Positions 2,587 to 64,000 of a stretch of DNA of 64,000 bases are shown piece by piece; the stretch's first letter is position 1; each line of letters opens with the position of its first letter. The DNA comes from Candidatus Taylorbacteria bacterium RIFCSPLOWO2_12_FULL_43_20 (GTDB lineage Bacteria; Patescibacteriota; Minisyncoccia; Phycocordibacterales; HO2-43-120). Below the pieces are notes generated by a model. The model was not told the origin of the DNA and did no database searches. It saw nothing but the letters and a program-made list of their open reading frames with translations. The stretch is from the NCBI GenBank assembly GCA_001821295.1, contig MHSK01000006.1:11801-75800 (forward strand), written 5' to 3'. The position numbers were made by a program, and so were the translations under genes.

Positions 2587-5500
2587 ATGCCGAAATTTAC
2601 TCATCTTCATACCCACTCCCACTATTCCCTTTTAAACGCCCTGCCACGACTGCCGGAGCTGGTAAAATCAGCGAAAAAAGACGGCATGGAAGCACTCGCC
2701 CTGACCGATAACGGCAATCTATATGGGGCGATTGAATTTTACAAAGAATGTGAACAGCAGGGCGTGAAGCCCATACTCGGCATAGACGCTTACAAAGCCC
2801 TGCGTACGAGATTTGACAAGCAAGCCGGTATAGACAACAAACGAACGAGATTGATATTGTTGGCAAAAGACAATGACGGCTACAGAAACCTAATCAAGCT
2901 CGTTACGTACTCCAACCTTGAGGGGTTCTATTACAAGCCGAGAATCGATGACGAACTCCTTCGTAAATACGGAAGTCATCTGATATGTATTTCTCCGGCC
3001 GGAAACGGAGAAATATCAAACATGCTTAGAGTTGGTGATTTTGACGGCGCCAAGAGCAAAACACGCGCTTACGGCGAAATTTTCGGCCGTGATAATTTTT
3101 ATTTGGAAGTGACTCGCCATCCTCAAGATGAAGAGCACGAAAAAATTTTGCCGGATATTAAAAAACTTTCAGAGCAAACGGGAGCAGAGCTCGTTGGCGC
3201 GCACGATATTTACTACATAGACCCTGAAGACAAAAAAGCCCGAGACACATTGCTTTCCGTCCAAACCTCCGGCGATTTCAGCGAAAGAAGGGCCTTTGGC
3301 CGAAGTGAGAACGATTACTCTTTTCAACTTAGCGCAAAAATGAAAGAGGTGTTGAGAGATTTCAACGGCGCGTATGAAAACGCGGGAAAGATCGCCGATA
3401 AATGCAATCTTTCGCTGGAACTCGGCAAGTGGCTTTTTCCGGAATACAAGGTTGAAAGCGGATTATCATATGATGAAGAACTCAGGAGAATAGTGGAGTC
3501 GGGAATGGATAGACGCGGAGTCAAGCCGACGGAAGAAGTCAAAAAACGGCTAGAATACGAGCTGGGGATTATTTTCCAGAAAGGATACGCGCCGTATTTT
3601 TTGGTCGTAGGAGACCTGCTTCGCTTCGCTCATGAACGCAAAATATTGACGACTATACGAGGATCGGTTGCCGGTTCGCTCGTCACCTACCTTGCAGGCA
3701 TTACCAATGTAAACCCCCTTGAATACAAAATTCCGTTTGAACGATTTCTCAATCCTGAAAGACCGTCCGCTCCCGATATAGACATGGATTATGCTGACGA
3801 CAGACGGGATGAAGTTATAGAATACACGAAAAATAAATATGGTGTGGACAAAGTAGCGCAAATAGGAACTTTCGGAACAATGATGGCGCGCGGCTCTGTC
3901 CGCGACGTCACCAGAGCGCTCGGACATCCCTACGGCGTAGGCGATGAACTTGCAAAAATGATACCGATGGGATCGCAGGGGTTTCCCATGACCATAGACC
4001 GCGCTCTTGAAATTGTCCCTGAACTTGCGAAAAAATATAAAGAAGATCAGACCTCAAAAGAAATAATGGACATCGCAAAAAAAATTGAGGGGTGCGCCCG
4101 GCATATCAGCGTGCACGCGGCAGGCGTGGTTATATCTCCTGTCCCGCTAACCGATATTGTCCCTTTGCAATACGACACCAAAGGAGAAAATAAAATCATC
4201 ACTCAGTATGACATGTATTCAATTGACGAGAACAATGCCGGACTTTTGAAATTTGATTTCCTGGGAATCAAGAATCTTTCAATTTTGGCAGAGTCGGTAG
4301 ATCATGCCAACAAGCGCTACGGCGCAAACATAGATATAGAAAAAATCCCGGTGGATGATGTCAAGACTTTTGATCTTTTGTCCCGAGGCGAAACAGCCGG
4401 ACTCTTCCAGATGAACGGCTCCGGCATGACCGCCTACCTGAAACAGCTGAAGCCGACAAGTATTTTTGATATCAACGCCATGGTCGCCCTTTATCGCCCT
4501 GGCCCCATGGAATCCATTCCACAGTACATAGAGCGAAAACATAACCAGCATCTGGTATCTTACCTGGATCCAAGAATGAAAAATATTTTGGATCAGTCAT
4601 ACGGGGTTATAACATACCAGGACGACGTTCTCCTCATCGCCATAAATCTTGCCGGATATACATGGCTTGAGGCAGATAAACTTCGTAAAGCCATGGGCAA
4701 AAAAATCCCCGAAGAAATGGAAGCTCAAAAAGAAAAACTTATTCAAGGCCTAGAGAAAAATGGCATGAATGGCAAGAAAGCCGGCGCCCTATGGAAGCTC
4801 ATAGAGCCTTTTGCCGCGTATGGATTCAATAAAGCCCATGCCGCTAGCTACGGCCGCGTGGCGTACCAGACCGCTTACATGAAAGCCAATTTCCCCGCCG
4901 TGTATATGTCATCCGTGCTCACGGCGGACTCCGGAGATGTGGAAAAAATCGGAGAAATAATCTCGGAGTGCAAGCGAATGAATATTCCGGTTTTACCCCC
5001 GGATATCAATGAGAGCTTTGCCGACTTTGCGGTCGTCGGCTCCGGCAAACCCGACGATGAAGAAAAAATTCGTTTTGGGCTGACAACTATAAAAAACTTT
5101 GGGGTCGGAATAGCGCAAATCATAATTGATGAGCGTGAAAAAAACGGAAAATACAAATCATTATCGGATTTTCTGGATAGAGTTAAAGATAGAAATCTGA
5201 ACAAAAAATCCCTGGAAGCTCTGGTCAAATGCGGTGCGTTGGATTCCTTCGGTGAAAGAGGTACCATGCTCGCCAATATAGAGGATCTTCTCGCTTATAA
5301 TAAAGAACAGTCTAAAAACAGCAATCATGATTCATTGTTCGGCGGGCTTTCCGAAGAAAACACGGGGATAAAAATGGCGCCGGCGGAAAAAGCAACCATG
5401 AATGATATGCTTGCGTGGGAAAAAGAGCTTCTCGGGCTATATATCTCCGGACATCCTTTGGACCGCGTAAAAGATCAATTGACGCGGCAAGGGAATAGTA

Positions 5501-33231: not shown

Positions 33232-33464
33232 TTTTTAATGTGTAATAAAATTATTATATCATCATTTTCGTTACTGCCGGCCAGGGACCATGAATACATT
33301 TCTCTCCCTCGACTCTCGTCGTGCCGTCGCACTCCTCGGTCTGGGCACCAGCTCGTCTGTTTTTTCTACTGAAAAAACATGACTCCGCTGTTCTCGTCCC
33401 TACGCGAGTGAAGCAGTTCACTCGCTGGCCGGCAGCAAAGCCTTTCGCTTCGCTCATTGCTTTA

Positions 33465-33535
33465 CTGCCGGCCAGGGACTCGAACCCCAATACCCGCCTC
33501 CAAAGGGCGGTGTCCTACCATTAGACGAGCCGGCA
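33465..33535 (-). tRNA. tRNA-Gln (anticodon UUG)
   Basis: Minus-strand sequence TGCCGGCTCGTCTAATGGTAGGACACCGCCCTTTGGAGGCGGGTATTGGGGTTCGAGTCCCTGGCCGGCA(G). Perfect 7-bp acceptor stem with U1:A72 and G73 as in bacterial tRNA-Gln. Anticodon stem CCGCC/GGCGG, loop CTTTGGA. Confidence 0.85.
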
Positions 33536-33610
33536 ATATTTTTATCCATATTAAGATTTTTGTATTATGCCTTTTATATCAGACTTTTTCAATGATTGAT
33601 CTTCTTTCCA

Positions 33611-46982: not shown

Positions 46983-47043
46983 CCCTCCCACGGTTCAAGT
47001 CCTTGAGGAGTTCACTCATCCGATTCGTGAGCCACCTCTCGGA
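46983..47043. repeat. 61-bp perfect direct repeat, distal copy (proximal copy 47134-47194 overlaps the tRNA-Thr 3' end)
   Basis: ccctcccacggttcaagtccttgaggagttcactcatccgattcgtgagccacctctcgga appears twice, separated by 90 bp carrying two small hairpins (ttgaaaacccaaggttttcaa and cggggaactcccgttccccg). Confidence 0.9.
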
Positions 47044-47180
47044 ATTTCACGTCGCTTTGCTCCTTGAAAACCCAAGGTTTTCAACGCTCGAAGACTCGCT
47101 CTTTCCTACACGGGGAACTCCCGTTCCCCGACCCCCTCCCACGGTTCAAGTCCTTGAGGAGTTCACTCATCCGATTCGTG

Positions 47181-47253
47181 AGCCACCTCTCGGACTTGAA
47201 CCGAGGACCCACGCTTTACAAAAGCGTTGCTCTACCAACTGAGCTAAGGTGGC
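47181..47253 (-). tRNA. tRNA-Thr (anticodon UGU)
   Basis: Minus-strand GCCACCTTAGCTCAGTTGGTAGAGCAACGCTTTTGTAAAGCGTGGGTCCTCGGTTCAAGTCCGAGAGGTGGCT. 7-bp acceptor stem, anticodon stem ACGCT/AGCGT, loop TTTGTAA, T-arm CTCGG-TTCAAGT-CCGAG. Confidence 0.88.
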
Positions 47254-56328: not shown

Positions 56329-56689
56329 AAATTGATTTAAAAACATCAAGTTTACTAATGAGATCTTCTCTGATTTCCTCGGGAGGAAGATCATTGGGAT
56401 ATTGTTTCTTTATCTCTTCAAACTTATCTCGCAAAATCTGAAGTCGATCAAATACTTCTGAGTATTGCTCCACCACTTCAGAATCTTTCATTTTGGCTAC
56501 TTCCAAGCCCAAAATAACAGCCGCCAAAACGTTCCCGTATTTAGCTGTCCATGGCTCTTTAGCGGCATCCAATACCTCTTGAGAGAATTTTGGAGGCGCT
56601 TCGCTTATAACTCTTTTCACTCGGAGTATAGACTCCGGCTCATGTTCCCTCTCTTCACTGTTTTGTTCGGCGACCATATTTTCAGACAT
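56327..56689 (-). CDS. Hypothetical acidic helical protein (120 aa)
   Basis: ORF only. Overlaps the tktB start by 8 nt. Confidence 0.35.
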   Translation of the reverse strand: MSENMVAEQNSEEREHEPESILRVKRVISEAPPKFSQEVLDAAKEPWTAKYGNVLAAVILGLEVAKMKDSEVVEQYSEVFDRLQILRDKFEEIKKQYPNDLPPEEIREDLISKLDVFKSI

Positions 56690-57701
56690 AATGTTTGGAT
56701 TTATTATTTCGTCTGTTTATAATTTTCCTTACCGCTCCCGTTATGTCCTTTTCACCCAGACCATAATGTTCAATGAGCTCTTCAGGGGTTCCCGACTGGC
56801 CGAATCGATCACGCACGCCCACGTATTCAATCGGCGTCGGTAAATTTTCCGATAAAAATTCAGCGATCGCTGAACCCATTCCTCCGAATATCTGATGCTC
56901 CTCCACCGTCACTATTCCACCCGCCTCCAGAGCGAGCCGTAAAACAGCCTTGCCATCCAAGGGTTTGATAGTTGAGAGATTCATGACTGTGACAGCTATC
57001 TTCTCCTTCTCCAGCTCTCTCGCAACGCTTAGCGCTTTGTGAATCAGGGCTCCCGTAGCAATAATTCCCACGTCGGGCTTTCCAACAATCGGCGCAAAAA
57101 GAATTTGCGCCTTTCCTATCTGAAAAGATGTGTTTTCTGAAGTAATGATAGGCGTTTTTTCCCTCGCGAGACGAATATATGTTGGATCGTGCGTCTTCGC
57201 CGCCTCCACCGTGGCCTTCTTGGCTTCTATGGCGTCGCATGGGGAAATAACAACCATTCTCGGAATAATTCTTGTTAATGCCAAATCTTCAATCGCTTGA
57301 TGCGTACCCCCGTCAGGCCCAACTGAAATTCCAGCGTGGGATCCGGCGATTTTTACCGGCTGGTCATTATAACAAATAGTTGTCCTGATTTGCTCCCAAT
57401 TTCGTCCTGGGCTGAACATCGCATATGATGTTATAAACGGAATTTTGCCCATTGCCGCCATGCCGGACGCCACCGACGCCAGATTTTGTTCCGCCACGCC
57501 CAACTCCACGAATCTATCCGGAAATTTTTTTTTGAAAAGATGCATCTGCGTGGACTCGGTAAGATCGGCACAGAGCCCGACGACATTCTCATCATTCTCG
57601 CCCGCGAAGAGCAGACCTTCGCCAAATCCTTTTCGTATCGGAATTTCCTCCACATCACGATCAAATATCTTTGGATTTAATTTTTGACTTGAAATTATCA
57701 T
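56682..57701 (-). CDS. Transketolase, C-terminal section (pyrimidine-binding plus C-terminal domains)
   Basis: FVELGVAEQNLASVASGMA…, typical TktB half. 339 aa. Confidence 0.85.
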   Translation of the reverse strand: MIISSQKLNPKIFDRDVEEIPIRKGFGEGLLFAGENDENVVGLCADLTESTQMHLFKKKFPDRFVELGVAEQNLASVASGMAAMGKIPFITSYAMFSPGRNWEQIRTTICYNDQPVKIAGSHAGISVGPDGGTHQAIEDLALTRIIPRMVVISPCDAIEAKKATVEAAKTHDPTYIRLAREKTPIITSENTSFQIGKAQILFAPIVGKPDVGIIATGALIHKALSVARELEKEKIAVTVMNLSTIKPLDGKAVLRLALEAGGIVTVEEHQIFGGMGSAIAEFLSENLPTPIEYVGVRDRFGQSGTPEELIEHYGLGEKDITGAVRKIINRRNNKSKHYV

Positions 57702-57744
57702 TCGATTTTAACTAAAAACTAATGACTAATGACTGTTGACTAAT

Positions 57745-58614
57745 CTACTGATGTTCACTTTTTATCTTTCCTCCCAGTGTTCTTAAAGAATTCAGGGCGA
57801 TTTTTTGCTCCGCCGGCGTCGTCGGCGGTTTACCATGCCACTCAAACTTCCTTTCAAAGTCTGGAATGCCTTTGGAAGGTATAGTGTACGCGATTATTAC
57901 GGACGATTTGTCAAAAACCGCCTGCGCCTGCCCAATAGCATCATCAATATCTGTGAAGCTGTGACCGTCGATTTCCTGCACATGCCAACCGAATGCCTGC
58001 CATTTTTCTTTCAGCGGAGACAAGGGCATTATATCTTCCGTAAATCCGTCAATCTGAATATTGTTTCTGTCTACAATCGCAGTCAAATTTTGAATTTTTT
58101 CCTTTCCCGCGAGCTGTATCGCTTCCCAATTCTGTCCTTCGTCAAGTTCGCCGTCTCCGGTTAAGCAATAAAACTGAATCTTGGACGTCCGCCCCTTATC
58201 AATTCTGTTCGCGAGAGCCATGCCGACCGCCTGCGATAAACCGGAGCCCAGAGGACCGGAGCTGGTCTCTAAAGCGGGAAGCCATTCCCTATGAGGATGA
58301 CCCTGCAAATGCGATCCAAACTTTCTTAATGTTTTAAGTTCCGATAATGGGAAATATCCGGCGTGCGCCATGGTAGCGTAAAGAACGGGACAAATGTGTC
58401 CGTTGGAAAGCACGACACGGTCTCTTTCTTCCCATGCGGGATTTTTCGGATCATGATTGAGTCCGAAAAAATACAAATAAGTAAAAATGTCTGCCATACC
58501 GAGAGGTCCGGCGGTATGCCCTGACCCAGCTTCAATAAGCATCTTAATGACATCAGAACGAATATCATTGGCTTTTTTCTCCAGTTCGTGAATCTTTGAT
58601 TCTGTAAGAGACAT
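57745..58614 (-). CDS. Transketolase, N-terminal section (TPP-binding)
   Basis: GSGHTAGPLGMADIF…GDGELDEGQNWEA (GDG-X-E TPP motif). 289 aa. Confidence 0.85.
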   Translation of the reverse strand: MSLTESKIHELEKKANDIRSDVIKMLIEAGSGHTAGPLGMADIFTYLYFFGLNHDPKNPAWEERDRVVLSNGHICPVLYATMAHAGYFPLSELKTLRKFGSHLQGHPHREWLPALETSSGPLGSGLSQAVGMALANRIDKGRTSKIQFYCLTGDGELDEGQNWEAIQLAGKEKIQNLTAIVDRNNIQIDGFTEDIMPLSPLKEKWQAFGWHVQEIDGHSFTDIDDAIGQAQAVFDKSSVIIAYTIPSKGIPDFERKFEWHGKPPTTPAEQKIALNSLRTLGGKIKSEHQ

Positions 58615-58657
58615 ATATATATTTTATGGAAAATGTTGATACGCGACCTGCGTTTTT

Positions 58658-59347
58658 TTAAACACCCTCGAAATGCCTCACGGTCTCAATAATGTTGGCG
58701 CTTTTGAGTATGGCGGAACCGGACACTAAACGATCCGCGCCTTCTTCCTTTAACCGCTTGGCGTTATCCAAGGTTACTCCTCCGTCAATACTAATTGTAA
58801 CTTCTGGATGGTTATTACGCAATTGACGCACTTTGCCAAAAACCCTTTCATCTAGCTCCTCGCCCTGATGGCCAACGTTCGCGATACCCATAAACTGAAC
58901 GAAGTCCGCGTCCTCAAGATATGGCAATATGGCATCGTTGTCCGTGCTTAAATTCAAAGATATTCCCAACTCCGGAGAAAGGATCTCATCTTTAGAAAAT
59001 TCGGCTCGGAAATTTTTAAAAATTTCCAGTACGTTTTCACTTTCAGCGTGAAAAATTATTCTTTTTGCTCCGGCAATTATAAAATCTCGGGCAATTTGCT
59101 CCGGTTGGCTTACAAAAAGATCAGCTTCATAATCAAAATCCTTCCAAAACGGCATCCCTTCCTCCTCTTTAATGATTCTGGCAAAATCGTCGCTATATCG
59201 TCCTCTGTAATAAGGCCAGCTCTGTACCATTACAAATTTTCCATCACAAACATCAAGCTGAATAACCTTGGCCAGACCAGCCATAAGCTCTAGCTTTTCT
59301 TTTATTTCAGGAAGAGTCTTCTCTAAAATTGCGGGAATGATTTGCAT
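58658..59347 (-). CDS. rpe: Ribulose-phosphate 3-epimerase family protein
   Basis: TIM-barrel pattern IIPAILEKTL…LDVCDGKFV…HAES…DGGV. Divergent. Confidence 0.55.
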   Translation of the reverse strand: MQIIPAILEKTLPEIKEKLELMAGLAKVIQLDVCDGKFVMVQSWPYYRGRYSDDFARIIKEEEGMPFWKDFDYEADLFVSQPEQIARDFIIAGAKRIIFHAESENVLEIFKNFRAEFSKDEILSPELGISLNLSTDNDAILPYLEDADFVQFMGIANVGHQGEELDERVFGKVRQLRNNHPEVTISIDGGVTLDNAKRLKEEGADRLVSGSAILKSANIIETVRHFEGV

Positions 59348-59372
59348 GGTGAAATTTTAAATTCTAAAATTA

Positions 59373-59822
59373 TCAACCGATATCGTCCAGCATTTTGTTT
59401 CTTCTTTTATGTCTCTCATCGCCGGAAAATGGCGTTTCTAGCCACGTGTCTACTGCTTGTTTTGCTTCTTCTATCGTCATGAAATGAGCACCGAGAGAAA
59501 GCACATTGGCATCATTGTGTTCCCTACCTAGTTTAACCACTTCCAAATTTTCTCCGTCATAAACTATGGCCCGGACACCCGGAAAACGATTACAAACAAT
59601 AGCTTCTCCTTGCCCGGATTTTCCGAGCACTATTCCTTTGTATTCAGTCGGGTTCTCAGAAATTTTAAAAGCAAGGGGAGTCAGAATCTCCGGATAATTA
59701 TCATTGTCATCAAATTTTTTTGCCCCAAAATCTTCCACCTCAAAGCCTTTCGTCTCGAGATAATTTCTCAGCTGATTCTTATATTCAAACCCCGCGTGAT
59801 CCGAGCCAATAAGTATTTTCAT
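59373..59822 (-). CDS. rpiB: Ribose-5-phosphate isomerase B (RpiB/LacAB family)
   Basis: MKILIGSDHAGFEYK…GIVLGKSGQGEAIVCNR. Confidence 0.85.
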   Translation of the reverse strand: MKILIGSDHAGFEYKNQLRNYLETKGFEVEDFGAKKFDDNDNYPEILTPLAFKISENPTEYKGIVLGKSGQGEAIVCNRFPGVRAIVYDGENLEVVKLGREHNDANVLSLGAHFMTIEEAKQAVDTWLETPFSGDERHKRRNKMLDDIG

Positions 59823-59914
59823 CTTTTAATTTTAGCATAATAACTCAAATTTTAGCATCATCATTGACAAACAAGTGATTTTCCAGATAATAGAAATCAG
59901 AAACAATTGACATT

Positions 59915-60244
59915 ATGAAAACAGCAACTGATCAACCGTTTACCTTAAGGATAATGGGCAATAATAGGCGCAAGACTATAAAAGTCATGGTGCGTCCGGT
60001 GAGCATGAAAGAAGCGAGGACAATCTTCCCTTATCGGCCTCTCAATAAATACGCCGAATCTCGCTTCGGCGGAGATAACCTCCACGACGACATATGTCTT
60101 CTCCTAAACAAACGCGCGACAAGATGCCGCATGTGTCAAGCACCGACAAAAAATGAATACTTGCAACAAGGAGTGTGCCCTGACTGTGACGGTCGATCTG
60201 AATATAACGGAATCGATCCTCATTCCACTTCCACGCGCGTATAA
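59915..60244 (+). CDS. Hypothetical protein with C-terminal CxxC…CxxC zinc ribbon
   Basis: CRMCQAP…CPDCDG. Confidence 0.3.
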   Translation: MKTATDQPFTLRIMGNNRRKTIKVMVRPVSMKEARTIFPYRPLNKYAESRFGGDNLHDDICLLLNKRATRCRMCQAPTKNEYLQQGVCPDCDGRSEYNGIDPHSTSTRV

Positions 60245-60345
60245 AATACGCGCTTTTTTTCATCCAACCCCATTTATGCTTGTAGATCGCTTGAAAGATG
60301 AGTCCATTTTAGATTGTTTTGCTTTCCAACCGAACAAACAAAGCT

Positions 60346-60693
60346 CTATCTGTTATTTTTTTCCTCTATAATCTTTTCAACCTCTCTCACAGCTTCCTTA
60401 ATAGCGCTTCGTCGCGCTAAAATTTCAGTCTCTTCAGCTGCCCTAGGATCAAAAGCGGGGCTATTTAGCATGTTCTTTTTTTCTTCGGCAGTAAGAGTGA
60501 AAAAACTTCTATCTTTAACCAACTCCCTTACATATCCCTCAATAGTCTGCTCTACAATATGCGGCTCAAGAGGCGCATCGCTTCTGCTGTAATCTTTAAC
60601 CATTTGCGCCACGACTTCATTCTTCTCCCGAGCAAAACGCGCTTGATAATCTTCATGTCTTTGCTCATTTTCTTTTGCTGATTCAAATGCCAT
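60346..60693 (-). CDS. Hypothetical helical protein (115 aa) immediately upstream of fic
   Basis: ORF. Separated from fic by 62 bp. Confidence 0.35.
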   Translation of the reverse strand: MAFESAKENEQRHEDYQARFAREKNEVVAQMVKDYSRSDAPLEPHIVEQTIEGYVRELVKDRSFFTLTAEEKKNMLNSPAFDPRAAEETEILARRSAIKEAVREVEKIIEEKNNR

Positions 60694-60755
60694 ATGATTT
60701 ATAAGTTTTAGTTAATAATTGACAATAATATCTCGGGGCTTGTCCCGAGAAACCT

Positions 60756-61304
60756 TTATTTATAGAAATCTTCTTCCTCATAATAGTAGGACTGCTCTAC
60801 GCCCTTCATGAAGATTTCGCGGTCACTAATTTTGTCGGTCAACGCAGCACGCAAAAGTTCGCGAATTTCTAGGTCATTCACCGGACTTCTTTGCATAGCA
60901 TTTAAATAATCTGCCTTGTCAATCTTCGCCCAATTAACGCATTGCTTGAGGTTCTTTTTCAAAACTAAGTCTAGCCAGATCCTCATACTGCGCCCATTTC
61001 CTTCCATAAACGGATGAGCTATATTCATTTCCACATATTTCGCGACAATTTGCTCAAAAGTACTTTCCGGCATTTCATCTATTTTTTCCAGACTTTCCTT
61101 CAAGTACAAGTGAGCGGCAAATCGAAAACCGCCCTTGCTTAAATCTTTTTTTCGTATCTGGCCGGAAAAGTCATAAAGTCCTCCAAATAAATATTCGTGG
61201 ATCTGTTGCAAACCTCTGGTTGTACCAACTTCAAAACCTGTAATTTCTGAGCTACCAAACAATTTTTTGGCGCGTTCTTTGCTAGTTTGGTCAACATTAG
61301 ACAT
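60756..61304 (-). CDS. fic: Fic/Doc-family (Fido) protein
   Basis: Canonical Fic motif [12 protein letters not shown] (HxFx[DE]GNGRxxR). 182 aa. Confidence 0.85.
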
Positions 61305-61408
61305 AACCTCATTATACCATTTTTAGGGTATTTTCCTAGTTTTTGAATAACCCCACCAATTTTGCTCATCACATATGTTTTTAGTTCGAATATGTTAGAA
61401 TTTAGAAT

Positions 61409-62221
61409 ATGAGAACGGGATATATTATATTGATTATTGTTGCTCTTTTTTTGTTCGTTGGCGGGTATATATTATTAGTAAGACCAAGCAGATACATGTC
61501 TAAAGAAAAAGCTTTTGAGATCATTCAACATAATCTAAATGCAAGCTCTATTTTTGACAATGGATCAAGAACATTTGACTTGTCGTTCTTGCGCGATTTA
61601 CATAATTGGGATGACACAGCGGGCGATATGTTCCAAACTAATCGACCGCAATTGATTAGAGGAACAGACGTAGTGGCCTCATTTTCCGTAGTTGGTTTTG
61701 AAGAAGTTTATAGTTCACAAAAAGATATTTCTGCTGATGAAAAATATTGGAGCTTTTCTTGGATTAGGACCAGTGTTCTCGATGAAAGCTATTCTTTTTA
61801 TGTAGATGCAACAAGTGGTGTTTTGTCTTTGGTTGGACACTATCAAATGAAATATATAAGCAAAGAAAATGCTTTTGAACATCTGCAGTCTTTTATACGT
61901 GAAAAGAGTACGGGCAAAGACCTTGGGTATTATAATTGGATCACGAAACTTAAGTCATATGATGATCAGGATGCAAAGATACAGATGTTTAATCTTGTGT
62001 ATGCCGATATGTCTGATGGTAGGCATATCCTTTTCAATTCTGAGACCCCTAGTGTAGGTAATCGTATCGTTTACGGAAGTACTTCCAACATCGTGAGCGC
62101 GAATAAATACTGGATCTTTAGTTGGCATAGTCCGGGGGTAATCGATAAGACCATTTCCTTTTATCTCGATGCTTTGGATGGTCGTGTAGTAGAGGTTACA
62201 GAATATTCAAGTCCAGAATAA
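61409..62221 (+). CDS. Membrane-anchored protein with two PepSY-like repeats
   Basis: Internal duplication KYWSFSW…SFYVDATSGVL / KYWIFSW…SFYLDALDGRVV. The …VDAxTG… ending is the PepSY hallmark. Confidence 0.5.
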   Translation: MRTGYIILIIVALFLFVGGYILLVRPSRYMSKEKAFEIIQHNLNASSIFDNGSRTFDLSFLRDLHNWDDTAGDMFQTNRPQLIRGTDVVASFSVVGFEEVYSSQKDISADEKYWSFSWIRTSVLDESYSFYVDATSGVLSLVGHYQMKYISKENAFEHLQSFIREKSTGKDLGYYNWITKLKSYDDQDAKIQMFNLVYADMSDGRHILFNSETPSVGNRIVYGSTSNIVSANKYWIFSWHSPGVIDKTISFYLDALDGRVVEVTEYSSPE

Positions 62222-62379
62222 AATCTTGTATATAGATCGTTATATTATCCCTTTTGTCAAACACAGAATAACTTAGAGTGTAGCAAGGACTGTCCTTGCT
62301 ACAGCTTTGCTACAGCTCAATCCGCTATACCTACTATAGCCGATTATAGCTAATTGTAGTTGATAATTTCAGAATTAGA

Positions 62380-63045
62380 TCACCACCATCCGAGTTTGGA
62401 GACAACTGGATACTTTTTAATAATGTCTTTGTTATTATAATTCTGACATGAGGTACCTCGGATAAGATTAGCTGTTTTAGGGAAGTTATCATTCTTGAAA
62501 AAGTCATCAATATTTGTCTTCCATTTTGCCTTGAGGTCATCGGTTAATATAATAGAATATCTGAGTCCTCTCATGGAAAACCACTGGGGTGAATAATTGC
62601 TTTCTTTAAGAGGAAGTGGTGTGTCAATACCATCTAAACAAATAAGTAAAGGTTTATTGAAAAATAATTTCTTTACTGTCCAAAATGGAGAACTTGATAA
62701 CGAGATAAATCCGATACCTGTTCCATTTTTCCAAGCTCTAATATAATCAAAACCGAATGGAATACTATCCTGTTGTCGAACCGCGCAATCTATTTTTACA
62801 TGACCGTAGTCGTTTGGTGTGATTTGAATCTTCTCATACGCCTCTTCCCACGGATAAACATCTAATATCTGCTTACATGATCCAGCCTTGTATGAATTAT
62901 CCGTCTTAGAAATCTTAATTCCAAAGGTTTTATTTGGTGCCTCATAACTTTCCACCAATGTTAAATTAAGCCAAAAACCATAGGAAAAATAACCGATAAT
63001 TAAAATCAAGATAACAAATCCAATTATTCGTAAGAATTTTTTCAT
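62380..63045 (-). CDS. Hypothetical membrane-anchored protein (221 aa)
   Basis: N-terminal TM helix. ORF only. Confidence 0.35.
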   Translation of the reverse strand: MKKFLRIIGFVILILIIGYFSYGFWLNLTLVESYEAPNKTFGIKISKTDNSYKAGSCKQILDVYPWEEAYEKIQITPNDYGHVKIDCAVRQQDSIPFGFDYIRAWKNGTGIGFISLSSSPFWTVKKLFFNKPLLICLDGIDTPLPLKESNYSPQWFSMRGLRYSIILTDDLKAKWKTNIDDFFKNDNFPKTANLIRGTSCQNYNNKDIIKKYPVVSKLGWW

Positions 63046-63047
63046 AA

Positions 63048-63130
63048 GTTTATATCAAACTCCCCGCCTCAATCACATGCCCCACCAACGTATGCGTATA
63101 CCCCATTTCGTTGTCGTACCAGGCCATCAT
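63048..63130 (-). pseudogene. Remnant copy 1 of the gap 3' end (26 codons: MMAWYDNEMGYTHTLVGHVIEAGSLI*)
   Basis: Compare the authentic gap C-terminus MGWYDNEMGYTHTLIQHVIKVGEKI* at 63457-63534. Confidence 0.8.
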
Positions 63131-63339
63131 AGATCACCTGATATGTTTATCCAGAAATATATCACCCATCCAAGCCAATATAGTACTGCAAGGATTAGTG
63201 GTGCGAATCCGATCCAGAAACTTTTTCGAATCATTTTCTGTTTAAGAATTGGATCTGGTTCATTTGCGTACTTTTTTTTACGACTGGAGTAGAAGATTAT
63301 TCCGAACGCTAGCAATATAATTACAATTAATATTGTCAT
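63127..63339 (-). CDS. Small two-TM membrane protein (70 aa) lying between the two gap 3'-end remnants
   Basis: ORF with two hydrophobic helices. Confidence 0.4.
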   Translation of the reverse strand: MTILIVIILLAFGIIFYSSRKKKYANEPDPILKQKMIRKSFWIGFAPLILAVLYWLGWVIYFWINISGDL

Positions 63340-63345
63340 GGTTTT

Positions 63346-63405
63346 GATTTAGATTAATCTACCGCCTTAATAACATGTTCAACCAGCGTATACGTATACC
63401 CGCCA
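63346..63405 (-). pseudogene. Remnant copy 2 of the gap 3' end (…CGGYTYTLVEHVIKAVD*)
   Basis: Degenerate match to the last about 17 codons of gap. Confidence 0.7.
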
Positions 63406-63456
63406 CACTTATTTAAATAATTAGATTTTATTATTTTTACATTTTTCATGTGATTA

Positions 63457-64000
63457 TTAGATTTTCTCACCAACTTTAATTACATGTTGAATAAGTGTGT
63501 GGGTATACCCCATCTCGTTATCATACCATCCCATGACTTTCACGAGATTTCCGCCCACGACGCGGGTCATTTTAAGATCGGCGATAGAACCATACGGACT
63601 GCCTAGAATATCTGAAGAGACGAGATCTTCTTCGGTTACGCTAAAAATACCTTCCCATCTTTTTTCTTGCGCCGCTTTTTTGAGAATTTCATTCACTTCT
63701 TCTTTTGTGGTTTCTTTTTTGGAAATAAAAGTCACGTCAACGATCGATCCGGCCGACACGGGAACTCTGGTAGAAATCCCATCAAAAAGACCTGAAAGTT
63801 TGGGGAAAGCTTTTGTCACAGCTATCGCCGCGCCGGTAGAGGAAGGCACAATGTTTTGCGCCGCCGCCCGGCCTTCGCGAAAATCTTTCTTGTTCGGCCC
63901 GTCGACAATGCTCTGGCTCGCCGTATACCCGTGCACAGTATTCAAAAGCGCTTTTTCAATTCCTAAAGCTTCATCCAAAATCGCGATCAAAGGAGAAGCA
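63457..64000 (-). CDS. gap: Glyceraldehyde-3-phosphate dehydrogenase, 5'-partial (C-terminal domain only in window)
   Basis: …HGYTASQSIVDGP…AAAQNIVPSSTGAAIAV…VMGWYDNEMGYT, GAPDH catalytic/C-terminal domain. Confidence 0.9.
   Translation of the reverse strand, partial: ASPLIAILDEALGIEKALLNTVHGYTASQSIVDGPNKKDFREGRAAAQNIVPSSTGAAIAVTKAFPKLSGLFDGISTRVPVSAGSIVDVTFISKKETTKEEVNEILKKAAQEKRWEGIFSVTEEDLVSSDILGSPYGSIADLKMTRVVGGNLVKVMGWYDNEMGYTHTLIQHVIKVGEKI

Follow-up and report, generated by a model that had tools for sequence, protein, structure and literature searches.

We analysed a window of 64,000 nucleotides (the whole stretch of DNA considered here) from Candidatus Taylorbacteria bacterium RIFCSPLOWO2_12_FULL_43_20 (contig MHSK01000006.1, positions 11,801 to 75,800), in which gap, the gene for the glycolytic enzyme GAPDH, is followed on the same strand by two further copies of its 3' end, referred to below as fragments 1 and 2. 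We consider it probable (roughly 0.7) that the three gap ends are attachment-site (att) scars, left when elements integrated site-specifically into the gap 3' end on two or more occasions. The window matches contig MHRL01000048 of the metagenome-assembled Candidatus Nomurabacteria genome GCA_001822555.1 (Patescibacteria, or candidate phyla radiation, CPR), and many contigs from metagenomes match it with 100% identity across the gap locus. Sequences fetched for comparison are designated by L numbers where they have to be told apart. The gap end and the region immediately downstream of it contain the following features:

63457–64000, minus strand: 3' part of gap (GAPDH, intact gene; from the list of open reading frames, ORFs), running off the right end of the window
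63457–63528, minus strand: resident gap end, from the W codon (63526–63528) to the stop, an attL-like copy according to the alignments
63402–63456, minus strand: 55-nt spacer from the gap stop to fragment 1, a gene-less micro-element (sequence and ORF list)
63354–63401, minus strand: fragment 1, a putative displaced gap end (tblastn against the resident end, E = 1e-3)
63127–63339, minus strand: 70-aa ORF with two hydrophobic segments, cargo between the putative displaced ends (ORF list)
63050–63123, minus strand: gap-like part of fragment 2, a putative displaced gap end (tblastn, E = 8e-11)
62380–63045, minus strand: 221-aa ORF, native downstream neighbour of a gap end of the fragment 2 type, with the same placement on L006

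The full-length gap gene, read from contig L002, encodes 340 aa with both GAPDH domains, and a gene with Gp_dh_N and Gp_dh_C was called at gap on all contigs. The protein terminates in ...MGWYDNEMGYTHTLIQHVIKVGEKI, and the stop codon lies at 63457–63459. Fragment 1 begins 55 nt past this stop; its translation is GGYTYTLVEHVIKAVD and its displaced-end peptide is GYTYTLVEHVIKAVD, each closed by a stop, and its similarity to gap begins at the GY codons. Fragment 2 is part of a short ORF (63050–63130) encoding MMAWYDNEMGYTHTLVGHVIEAGSLI, whose gap-like portion is WYDNEMGYTHTLVGHVIEAGSLI, both again closed by a stop. Here, similarity to gap starts exactly at the TGG (W) codon at 63121–63123, 334 nt past the gap stop. 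In both fragments the reading frame is open until a stop at the expected position.

When the last 37 residues of gap were compared with the whole window using tblastn, fragment 2 and fragment 1 were recovered with the E values given above, and the next best match had E = 1.9. The three gap ends also formed the top direct-repeat family in a repeat search of the window, and a degenerate 37-nt pattern, which was derived from the copies themselves, matched exactly these three sites and none in 100 shuffled sequences. An initial annotation of this DNA had placed two copies of the gap end about 55 and about 330 nt downstream of gap on the same strand, with a 70-aa membrane-protein ORF between them. 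The copies, their minus-strand positions and the ORF were all confirmed, the measured distances being 55 and 334 nt, and at the nucleotide level the copies align well beyond chance.

The same annotation had described the copies as degenerate and had suggested checking whether their divergence grows with distance from gap. The alignments bore out neither: fragments 1 and 2 are 83% identical to each other over 40 nt, whereas the resident end and fragment 2 are 63% identical over the same 40 nt (72% over 57 nt), and divergence does not rise with distance from gap. The tail of fragment 1, GYTYTLVEHVIKA, matches the gap tail of L035 at 13 of 13 residues, and GYTYTLVEHVIK is a tail common among gap homologues. 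In other words, the fragments are alternative gap-end alleles, not decayed or paralogous copies of the resident end.

One sister contig, L006 (also fetched as L110; ERZ4903072 k141_1449102), begins inside a gap gene with an intact end, which we term allele 2. This gene ends with the exact sequence of fragment 2 (100%) and directly abuts the same 221-aa ORF, which starts 4 nt past the stop of fragment 2 in the window and 4 nt past the intact allele-2 gap on L006. From the W codon at 63121–63123 downstream, L006 and the window are 100% identical over 3.8 kb, and the gene order is the same beyond. Because the intact gap of L006 has both the end of fragment 2 and the same 221-aa ORF, fragment 2 looks like a displaced original end; it is apparently the genuine end of another gap allele, still joined to its native neighbour. 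L006 itself looks like an unoccupied attachment site, as a single observation with a gene body that is 33% different.

Scars of the same kind were found in other species. We compared 80 gap loci from different Patescibacteria species by six-frame scanning and tblastn, and extra same-strand gap ends were present downstream of gap in six of them, with one to three such ends per locus at 0.3–2.3 kb past gap. These loci are L035 (three fragments), L037, L041, L050, L058 and L032; in a seventh, L025, the fragment is weak. Upstream of the left edge of the fragments, similarity to gap falls to chance (1–9 of 19 positions, mostly 1–5). The edge lies at or near the W codon (TGG of WYDNEMGY) in fragment 2 of the window and in L035, L037, L041 and L058, and at the GGG codon for the G of GY in fragment 1 of the window and in L050 and L032, such that all fragment edges in seven genomes fall within approximately 27 nt. 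In L050, a perfect 60-nt direct repeat surrounds 1.35 kb of unrelated DNA. The intervals in these relatives contain small ORFs of unassigned function, including several for small membrane proteins. Moreover, gap and rpiB are adjacent (5–55 nt apart) in 29 of the 72 loci that show both genes. The other loci carry inserts of 0.07–4 kb, and on this basis the gap-rpiB junction is an insertion hotspot.

Integrase-bearing elements occupy exactly this site in relatives. When IMG/VR was scanned with the gap alignment, contig 3300014208_001117 (40.5 kb; fetched as L097 and L103) was identified, which carries a prophage between gap and rpiB. The order is gap, approximately 38 kb of phage, a tyrosine integrase, a gap 3'-end fragment, a 23S-rRNA-IVP gene and rpiB. 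The phage genes include those for an AAA_24 ATPase, a PD-(D/E)XK nuclease, an IstB-like ATPase, a 2069-aa protein and a protein with a peptidoglycan-binding domain, and the displaced gap fragment lies 370 nt beyond the integrase (390 aa, PF00589, E = 4e-21). The two gap ends of this contig share 59 of 60 nt from the W codon and diverge 12–15 nt before the stop. The left edge of this att repeat is also the left edge of the resident gap end and of fragment 2 in the window, as well as of the fragments in L035, L037, L041 and L058. L097/L103 is a complete prophage lying between gap and rpiB. As a separate observation, the att region of this prophage lies between the arms of a perfect 16-nt inverted repeat (TTTTTAGAGACTCCGC / GCGGAGTCTCTAAAAA; approximately 1309–1324 of L097 and 10026–10041 of L103). 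One arm lies just past the gap stop at attL, where it overlaps a terminator-like hairpin, and the second is located 5 nt ahead of the attR repeat; the two may represent arm sites for the integrase or the remains of terminators.

A second phage family, unrelated to the first, starts directly behind the stop codon of gap in the species-representative genome L024 and in the viral contigs L095/L112, L096 and L102. It encodes an AAA (AAA_24-like) ATPase of approximately 380 aa, Rep_O, DNA methylases and a probable large terminase, and its members show 26–98% protein identity to each other. These contigs display the gap-proximal end of the phage, the far ends lying beyond the fetched DNA. A search of IMG/VR for the attP of a free phage with two degenerate gap-end patterns returned only contigs that were already known. 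The initial annotation had interpreted the window locus as the footprint of an element that inserted into the gap 3' end, supplied a replacement end and displaced the old one. The allele on L006, the scars in six of 80 species with a weak seventh, and the prophages at the same spot in related genomes support this interpretation.

We infer that the window fragments arose as follows. A circular phage or island would carry an attP with a copy of the last 50–80 nt of gap, beginning at the WYDNEMGY codons and running through the stop. Recombination of this attP with the chromosomal gap end by a tyrosine integrase would rebuild gap with the element's version of the final 15–25 codons and would push the host's original end to the far side of the element, where it would keep its native downstream DNA. 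If a second element then integrated into the rebuilt end, the process would be repeated and the displaced ends would be stacked. On this model, fragment 2 would be the original host end, still attached to the 221-aa ORF; fragment 1 would stem from the first element, which survives as approximately 0.3 kb with the 70-aa ORF; and the resident end would have been supplied by the second and most recent element, of which 55 nt survives. The integrase and the remainder of both elements would since have been deleted, and nothing here would be mobile on its own.

Several results weigh against this reading. No integrase and no phage-like gene was found in the gap-rpiB island with Pfam and PHROGs, a homologue of the L103 integrase is absent from the 64-kb window (tblastn), and when the island was compared with the gap-site phages by tblastx, only the gap end itself was similar. 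A relative of the L103 integrase is also missing from every genome that carries fragments. The intervals between the copies are tiny (55 nt and approximately 0.3 kb), and large deletions therefore have to be assumed. In addition, the gap body of L006 shows only 67% nucleotide identity to that of the window, which is unexpected because insertion at the 3' end ought not to alter the gene body. L006 is one contig, beginning within gap, and no second contig of its type was found: an exact search of JGI metagenomes with an allele-2 39-mer gave no matches, and the protein database contained no close full-length allele-2 protein, the best match to the 129-aa fragment being 79% identical. Finally, both events need not have occurred in this lineage, since the array may have arrived in one piece by import.

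The discrepancy in the L006 body may reflect a later swap of the gap body by recombination, or import of the whole array including gap from a donor with the right crossover in the att-like repeat; alternatively, L006 may be an assembly chimera. As regards mobility, the recombinase search that the initial annotation had suggested yielded none in the island and no integrase of the L103 type in the window. Each interval in the window is bounded by copies of the gap end and holds neither a recombinase nor a transfer gene. Because the island is devoid of an integrase, the locus is a remnant and not an intact element; it is a fossil with no active parts.

We also considered that no elements were involved, and that a foreign gap from a related bacterium, with or without genes downstream of it, replaced most of the resident gene with a right junction in the WYDNEMGY stretch, leaving behind the old 50–75 nt. 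The left crossover could lie upstream of or within gap, and the array could reflect two replacements or one import of an array built in a donor. Replacement of the body predicts what L006 displays, namely a body that is 33% different together with 100% identity from the W codon downstream. The absence of a recombinase from the island is also in line with it, as is a short ORF that opens in the 55-nt spacer (MKNVKIIKSNYLNKC...), continues into fragment 1 and resembles a truncated start of a donor gene fused to this fragment. However, illegitimate right junctions should scatter, whereas the edges in seven genomes are confined to the approximately 27 nt noted above and coincide with the att repeat of an integrase-bearing prophage. 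Furthermore, the longest exact match between the two gap alleles in the WYDNEMGY stretch, approximately 11 nt, is a poor substrate for a homologous crossover, and the perfect 60-nt repeat around unrelated DNA in L050 is typical of att sites. Allelic replacement is thus unlikely as the sole source of the fragments, and it may account for a single step in addition to integration, namely the exchange of the gene body. Another possibility is local duplication, in which slippage or unequal crossing-over would have duplicated the gap end on the spot, with subsequent drift, as might be expected from copies that are close, co-oriented and in frame. Because the fragments are closer to each other and to the gap ends of other species than to the resident end, and because divergence shows no rise with distance, we rejected this explanation; fragment 2 is, moreover, identical to the true end of another allele, and the stretches separating the copies are unrelated in sequence, which means that no tandem unit was duplicated. 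We regard it as extremely improbable.

Another explanation is that the locus is an active, integron-like cassette platform, at which small units flanked by gap ends, each with one gene for a small membrane protein, are captured by a recombinase encoded elsewhere. The units are indeed short (0.1–1.4 kb) and usually hold one or two small ORFs, with up to three fragments in L035, and small membrane proteins (YWLRGG...GWxYGKIK) follow gap ends in L035, L041 and L058. However, the island contains no integron integrase, and the repeat units have no shared single-stranded DNA hairpin: among six repeat-unit folds (both strands), one departed from shuffled sequences (z-score of –2.9) and the others ranged from –0.35 to +0.58, with no common attC-like hairpin. 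An integron cassette array in the strict sense was ruled out on these two grounds. Exact copies of the 70-aa ORF product, in addition, occur in one arrangement only, and decay of prophages gives the same anatomy more simply. A cassette platform of this kind is accordingly very improbable. A broader proposal is that the gap end serves throughout the phylum (Paceibacteria, CPR) as a landing pad for at least two phage lineages, with the integrase-less mini-units of 0.1–1.4 kb, many of them carrying a single gene for a small membrane protein, being hitchhiking cassettes rather than dead scars, excised and re-inserted by phage integrases and reshuffling GAPDH C-termini and even entire gap alleles between species. 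We hold this to be rather doubtful, a little less so than the cassette platform; if it were true, a cassette-exchange system would be built on a glycolytic gene in bacteria with few described prophages. Site-specific integration followed by loss of the elements remains our preferred reading.

The remainder of the region between gap and rpiB, where the insert in the window measures 3.6 kb, contains the following features:

59823–62379, mixed strands: rest of the gap-rpiB variable island, with a 270-aa ORF (plus), a Fic gene (minus), a 115-aa ORF (minus) and a 109-aa ORF (plus) (Pfam scan)
59373–59822, minus strand: rpiB, the conserved right flank (Pfam LacAB_rpiB, E = 4e-40)

The 70-aa ORF was called as a gene in both NCBI and JGI records, and its stop overlaps the start codon of the fragment 2 ORF (ATGA). 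Neither this ORF nor the 221-aa ORF matched Pfam or PHROGs. Exact copies of the 70-aa product were not found outside a single arrangement, and a search for a donor context of the two ORFs returned the same arrangement, besides the single L006/L110 variant. The sole PHROG match among the island cargo was the Fic gene. This Fic-domain gene (60756–61304, minus strand, 182 aa, E = 1e-13) is followed 62 nt downstream by the 115-aa ORF on the same strand, the pair spanning 60346–61304, and the two could be a toxin-antitoxin-like pair. At the equivalent position L035 has two ORF pairs that resemble, by eye only, nucleotidyltransferase toxin modules. Translation of the stretch upstream of rpiB revealed no gap fragment at the rpiB end of the island.

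The order gap-rpiB-rpe is widely conserved in these Patescibacteria and is extended by split transketolase genes (window 56682–59822; inspected loci among L015–L094). Within this order, variation is confined to the gap-rpiB junction, with spacings between 5 nt and 4 kb. Small membrane proteins of one family are encoded right after a gap end, resident or displaced, in L035 (11613–11825), L041 (11036–11314) and L058 (6886–7212), with the N-terminus ...K(R/N)YWLRG... and the C-terminus ...GWxY(G/R)(K/E)IK(N/S/R)R(K/N)...; in some lineages these genes may have adjoined gap ancestrally, or they may be a frequent cargo.

On the other side of gap, just past the right end of the window, L002 carries a 226-aa gene with a Y1 (IS200-like, HUH) transposase domain (4496–5176), which is divergent and upstream of gap. 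Homologues were found with tblastn in nine other Patescibacteria loci. They are divergent and immediately upstream of gap in L018, L029, L045, L051, L063 and L082, upstream and co-oriented in L073, and at other positions in L015, L086 and, as a second copy, in L063. This gene looks like conserved synteny, possibly domesticated, rather than a recent insertion. As a cause of the fragments the Y1 transposase was ruled out, since none of these other loci carries fragments. One further contig, L014 (P0001; ERZ27254809 k141_681483, 1.5 kb), has at approximately 1417–1537 a gap of the window type up to ...WYDNEMGY, followed by an unrelated GC-rich tail, VHRMMELCGKVALSLP, with a stop and by the apparent start of another GC-rich gene; the switch is located at the GY codons, which also mark the edge in one of the att classes. 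We judged this contig to be probably chimeric or of low quality and low coverage, and it was not used as evidence.

The initial annotation had extended the same logic to two tRNA genes elsewhere in the window. Repeats of the 3' ends are present at both. At tRNA-Thr (47180–47253) there is a perfect 61-nt direct repeat on the minus strand (46983–47043 and 47134–47194) with a 151-nt period, made up of the last 15 nt of tRNA-Thr and 46 nt downstream; it has the appearance of a further micro-insertion or att scar, here at the 3' end of a tRNA gene. At tRNA-Gln (33464–33536), the last 16 nt and 2 nt downstream are repeated exactly (33271–33288 and 33462–33479, minus strand), the repeat starting 191 nt further downstream. 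This second match is marginal (E = 8e-4 within the window) and is placed where an att scar would be expected. A scan of ten ORFs around the two tRNA genes (three of them flanking tRNA-Thr) revealed no integrase.

If integration is the correct reading, an extra WYDNEMGY... fragment between gap and rpiB would be a sequence signature for prophages or past lysogeny in uncultured bacteria, and to our knowledge few temperate phages of Patescibacteria (CPR) have been described. The gap-rpiB junction would then be a hotspot that accumulates accessory genes, and each integration would rewrite the last 15–25 residues of an essential glycolytic enzyme. A limited literature search found no report of the gap 3' end as an attB or phage attachment site, nor of a gap hotspot in CPR bacteria. 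The mechanism is already known from textbooks; the target gene, gap, and the phylum appear to be new.

Phages and islands that integrate at the 3' ends of tRNA or tmRNA genes carry the gene end in their attP, and a tyrosine integrase restores the gene while a partial copy is displaced. The gap-site elements resemble these in that the integrase adjoins one att site and that repeated use of the site leads to tandem arrays. Unlike tRNA and tmRNA genes, gap is protein-coding, and the last 15–25 residues of GAPDH are consequently altered (for example, ...LIQHVIKVGEKI vs. ...LVGHVIEAGSLI). A conserved stretch of a housekeeping gene is used as attB in many species by the dusA-specific integrase family (PMC4482086), with the reading frame being restored. 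The elements at gap likewise use a conserved stretch of a protein-coding gene as attachment site and would restore its frame. In contrast, dusA elements insert at the 5' end of the gene.

The closest resemblance in structure is to the remnants described in streptococci (Streptococcus salivarius and Streptococcus thermophilus), in which cis-mobilizable elements (CIMEs) and microCIMEs accrete in tandem with integrative and conjugative elements (ICEs) as well as with integrative and mobilizable elements (IMEs) at the 3' ends of the genes fda, rpsI, rpmG and rplL (PMC7563491). CIMEs measure 1.2–13 kb and gene-less microCIMEs 130–220 bp, and both are flanked by att sites and lack an integrase (PMC7563491, and Bellanger et al. 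2011 to the extent that it is cited there). The window locus resembles them as a set of integrase-less remnants with att repeats from the 3' end of a housekeeping gene, in tandem beside the intact target, which range from gene-less units to units with cargo. By size class, the 55-nt spacer is akin to the gene-less microCIMEs, and both fda and gap are genes of glycolysis. The streptococcal remnants are decayed ICEs and IMEs, many of them in tandem with one, whereas the intact elements at gap are tailed-phage-like, with no conjugation genes seen. Moreover, unlike CIMEs, the window remnants share no sequence with the gap-site phages, and their descent from a known element was not borne out by tblastx. 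They also differ from microCIMEs in the phylum (Patescibacteria) and the target (gap), and the window units are smaller still, with a 55-nt spacer and 109 nt from start to start. In structure, the window locus thus corresponds to a putative CIME or microCIME: the predicted att sites have been kept, and the recombination and transfer genes have been lost.

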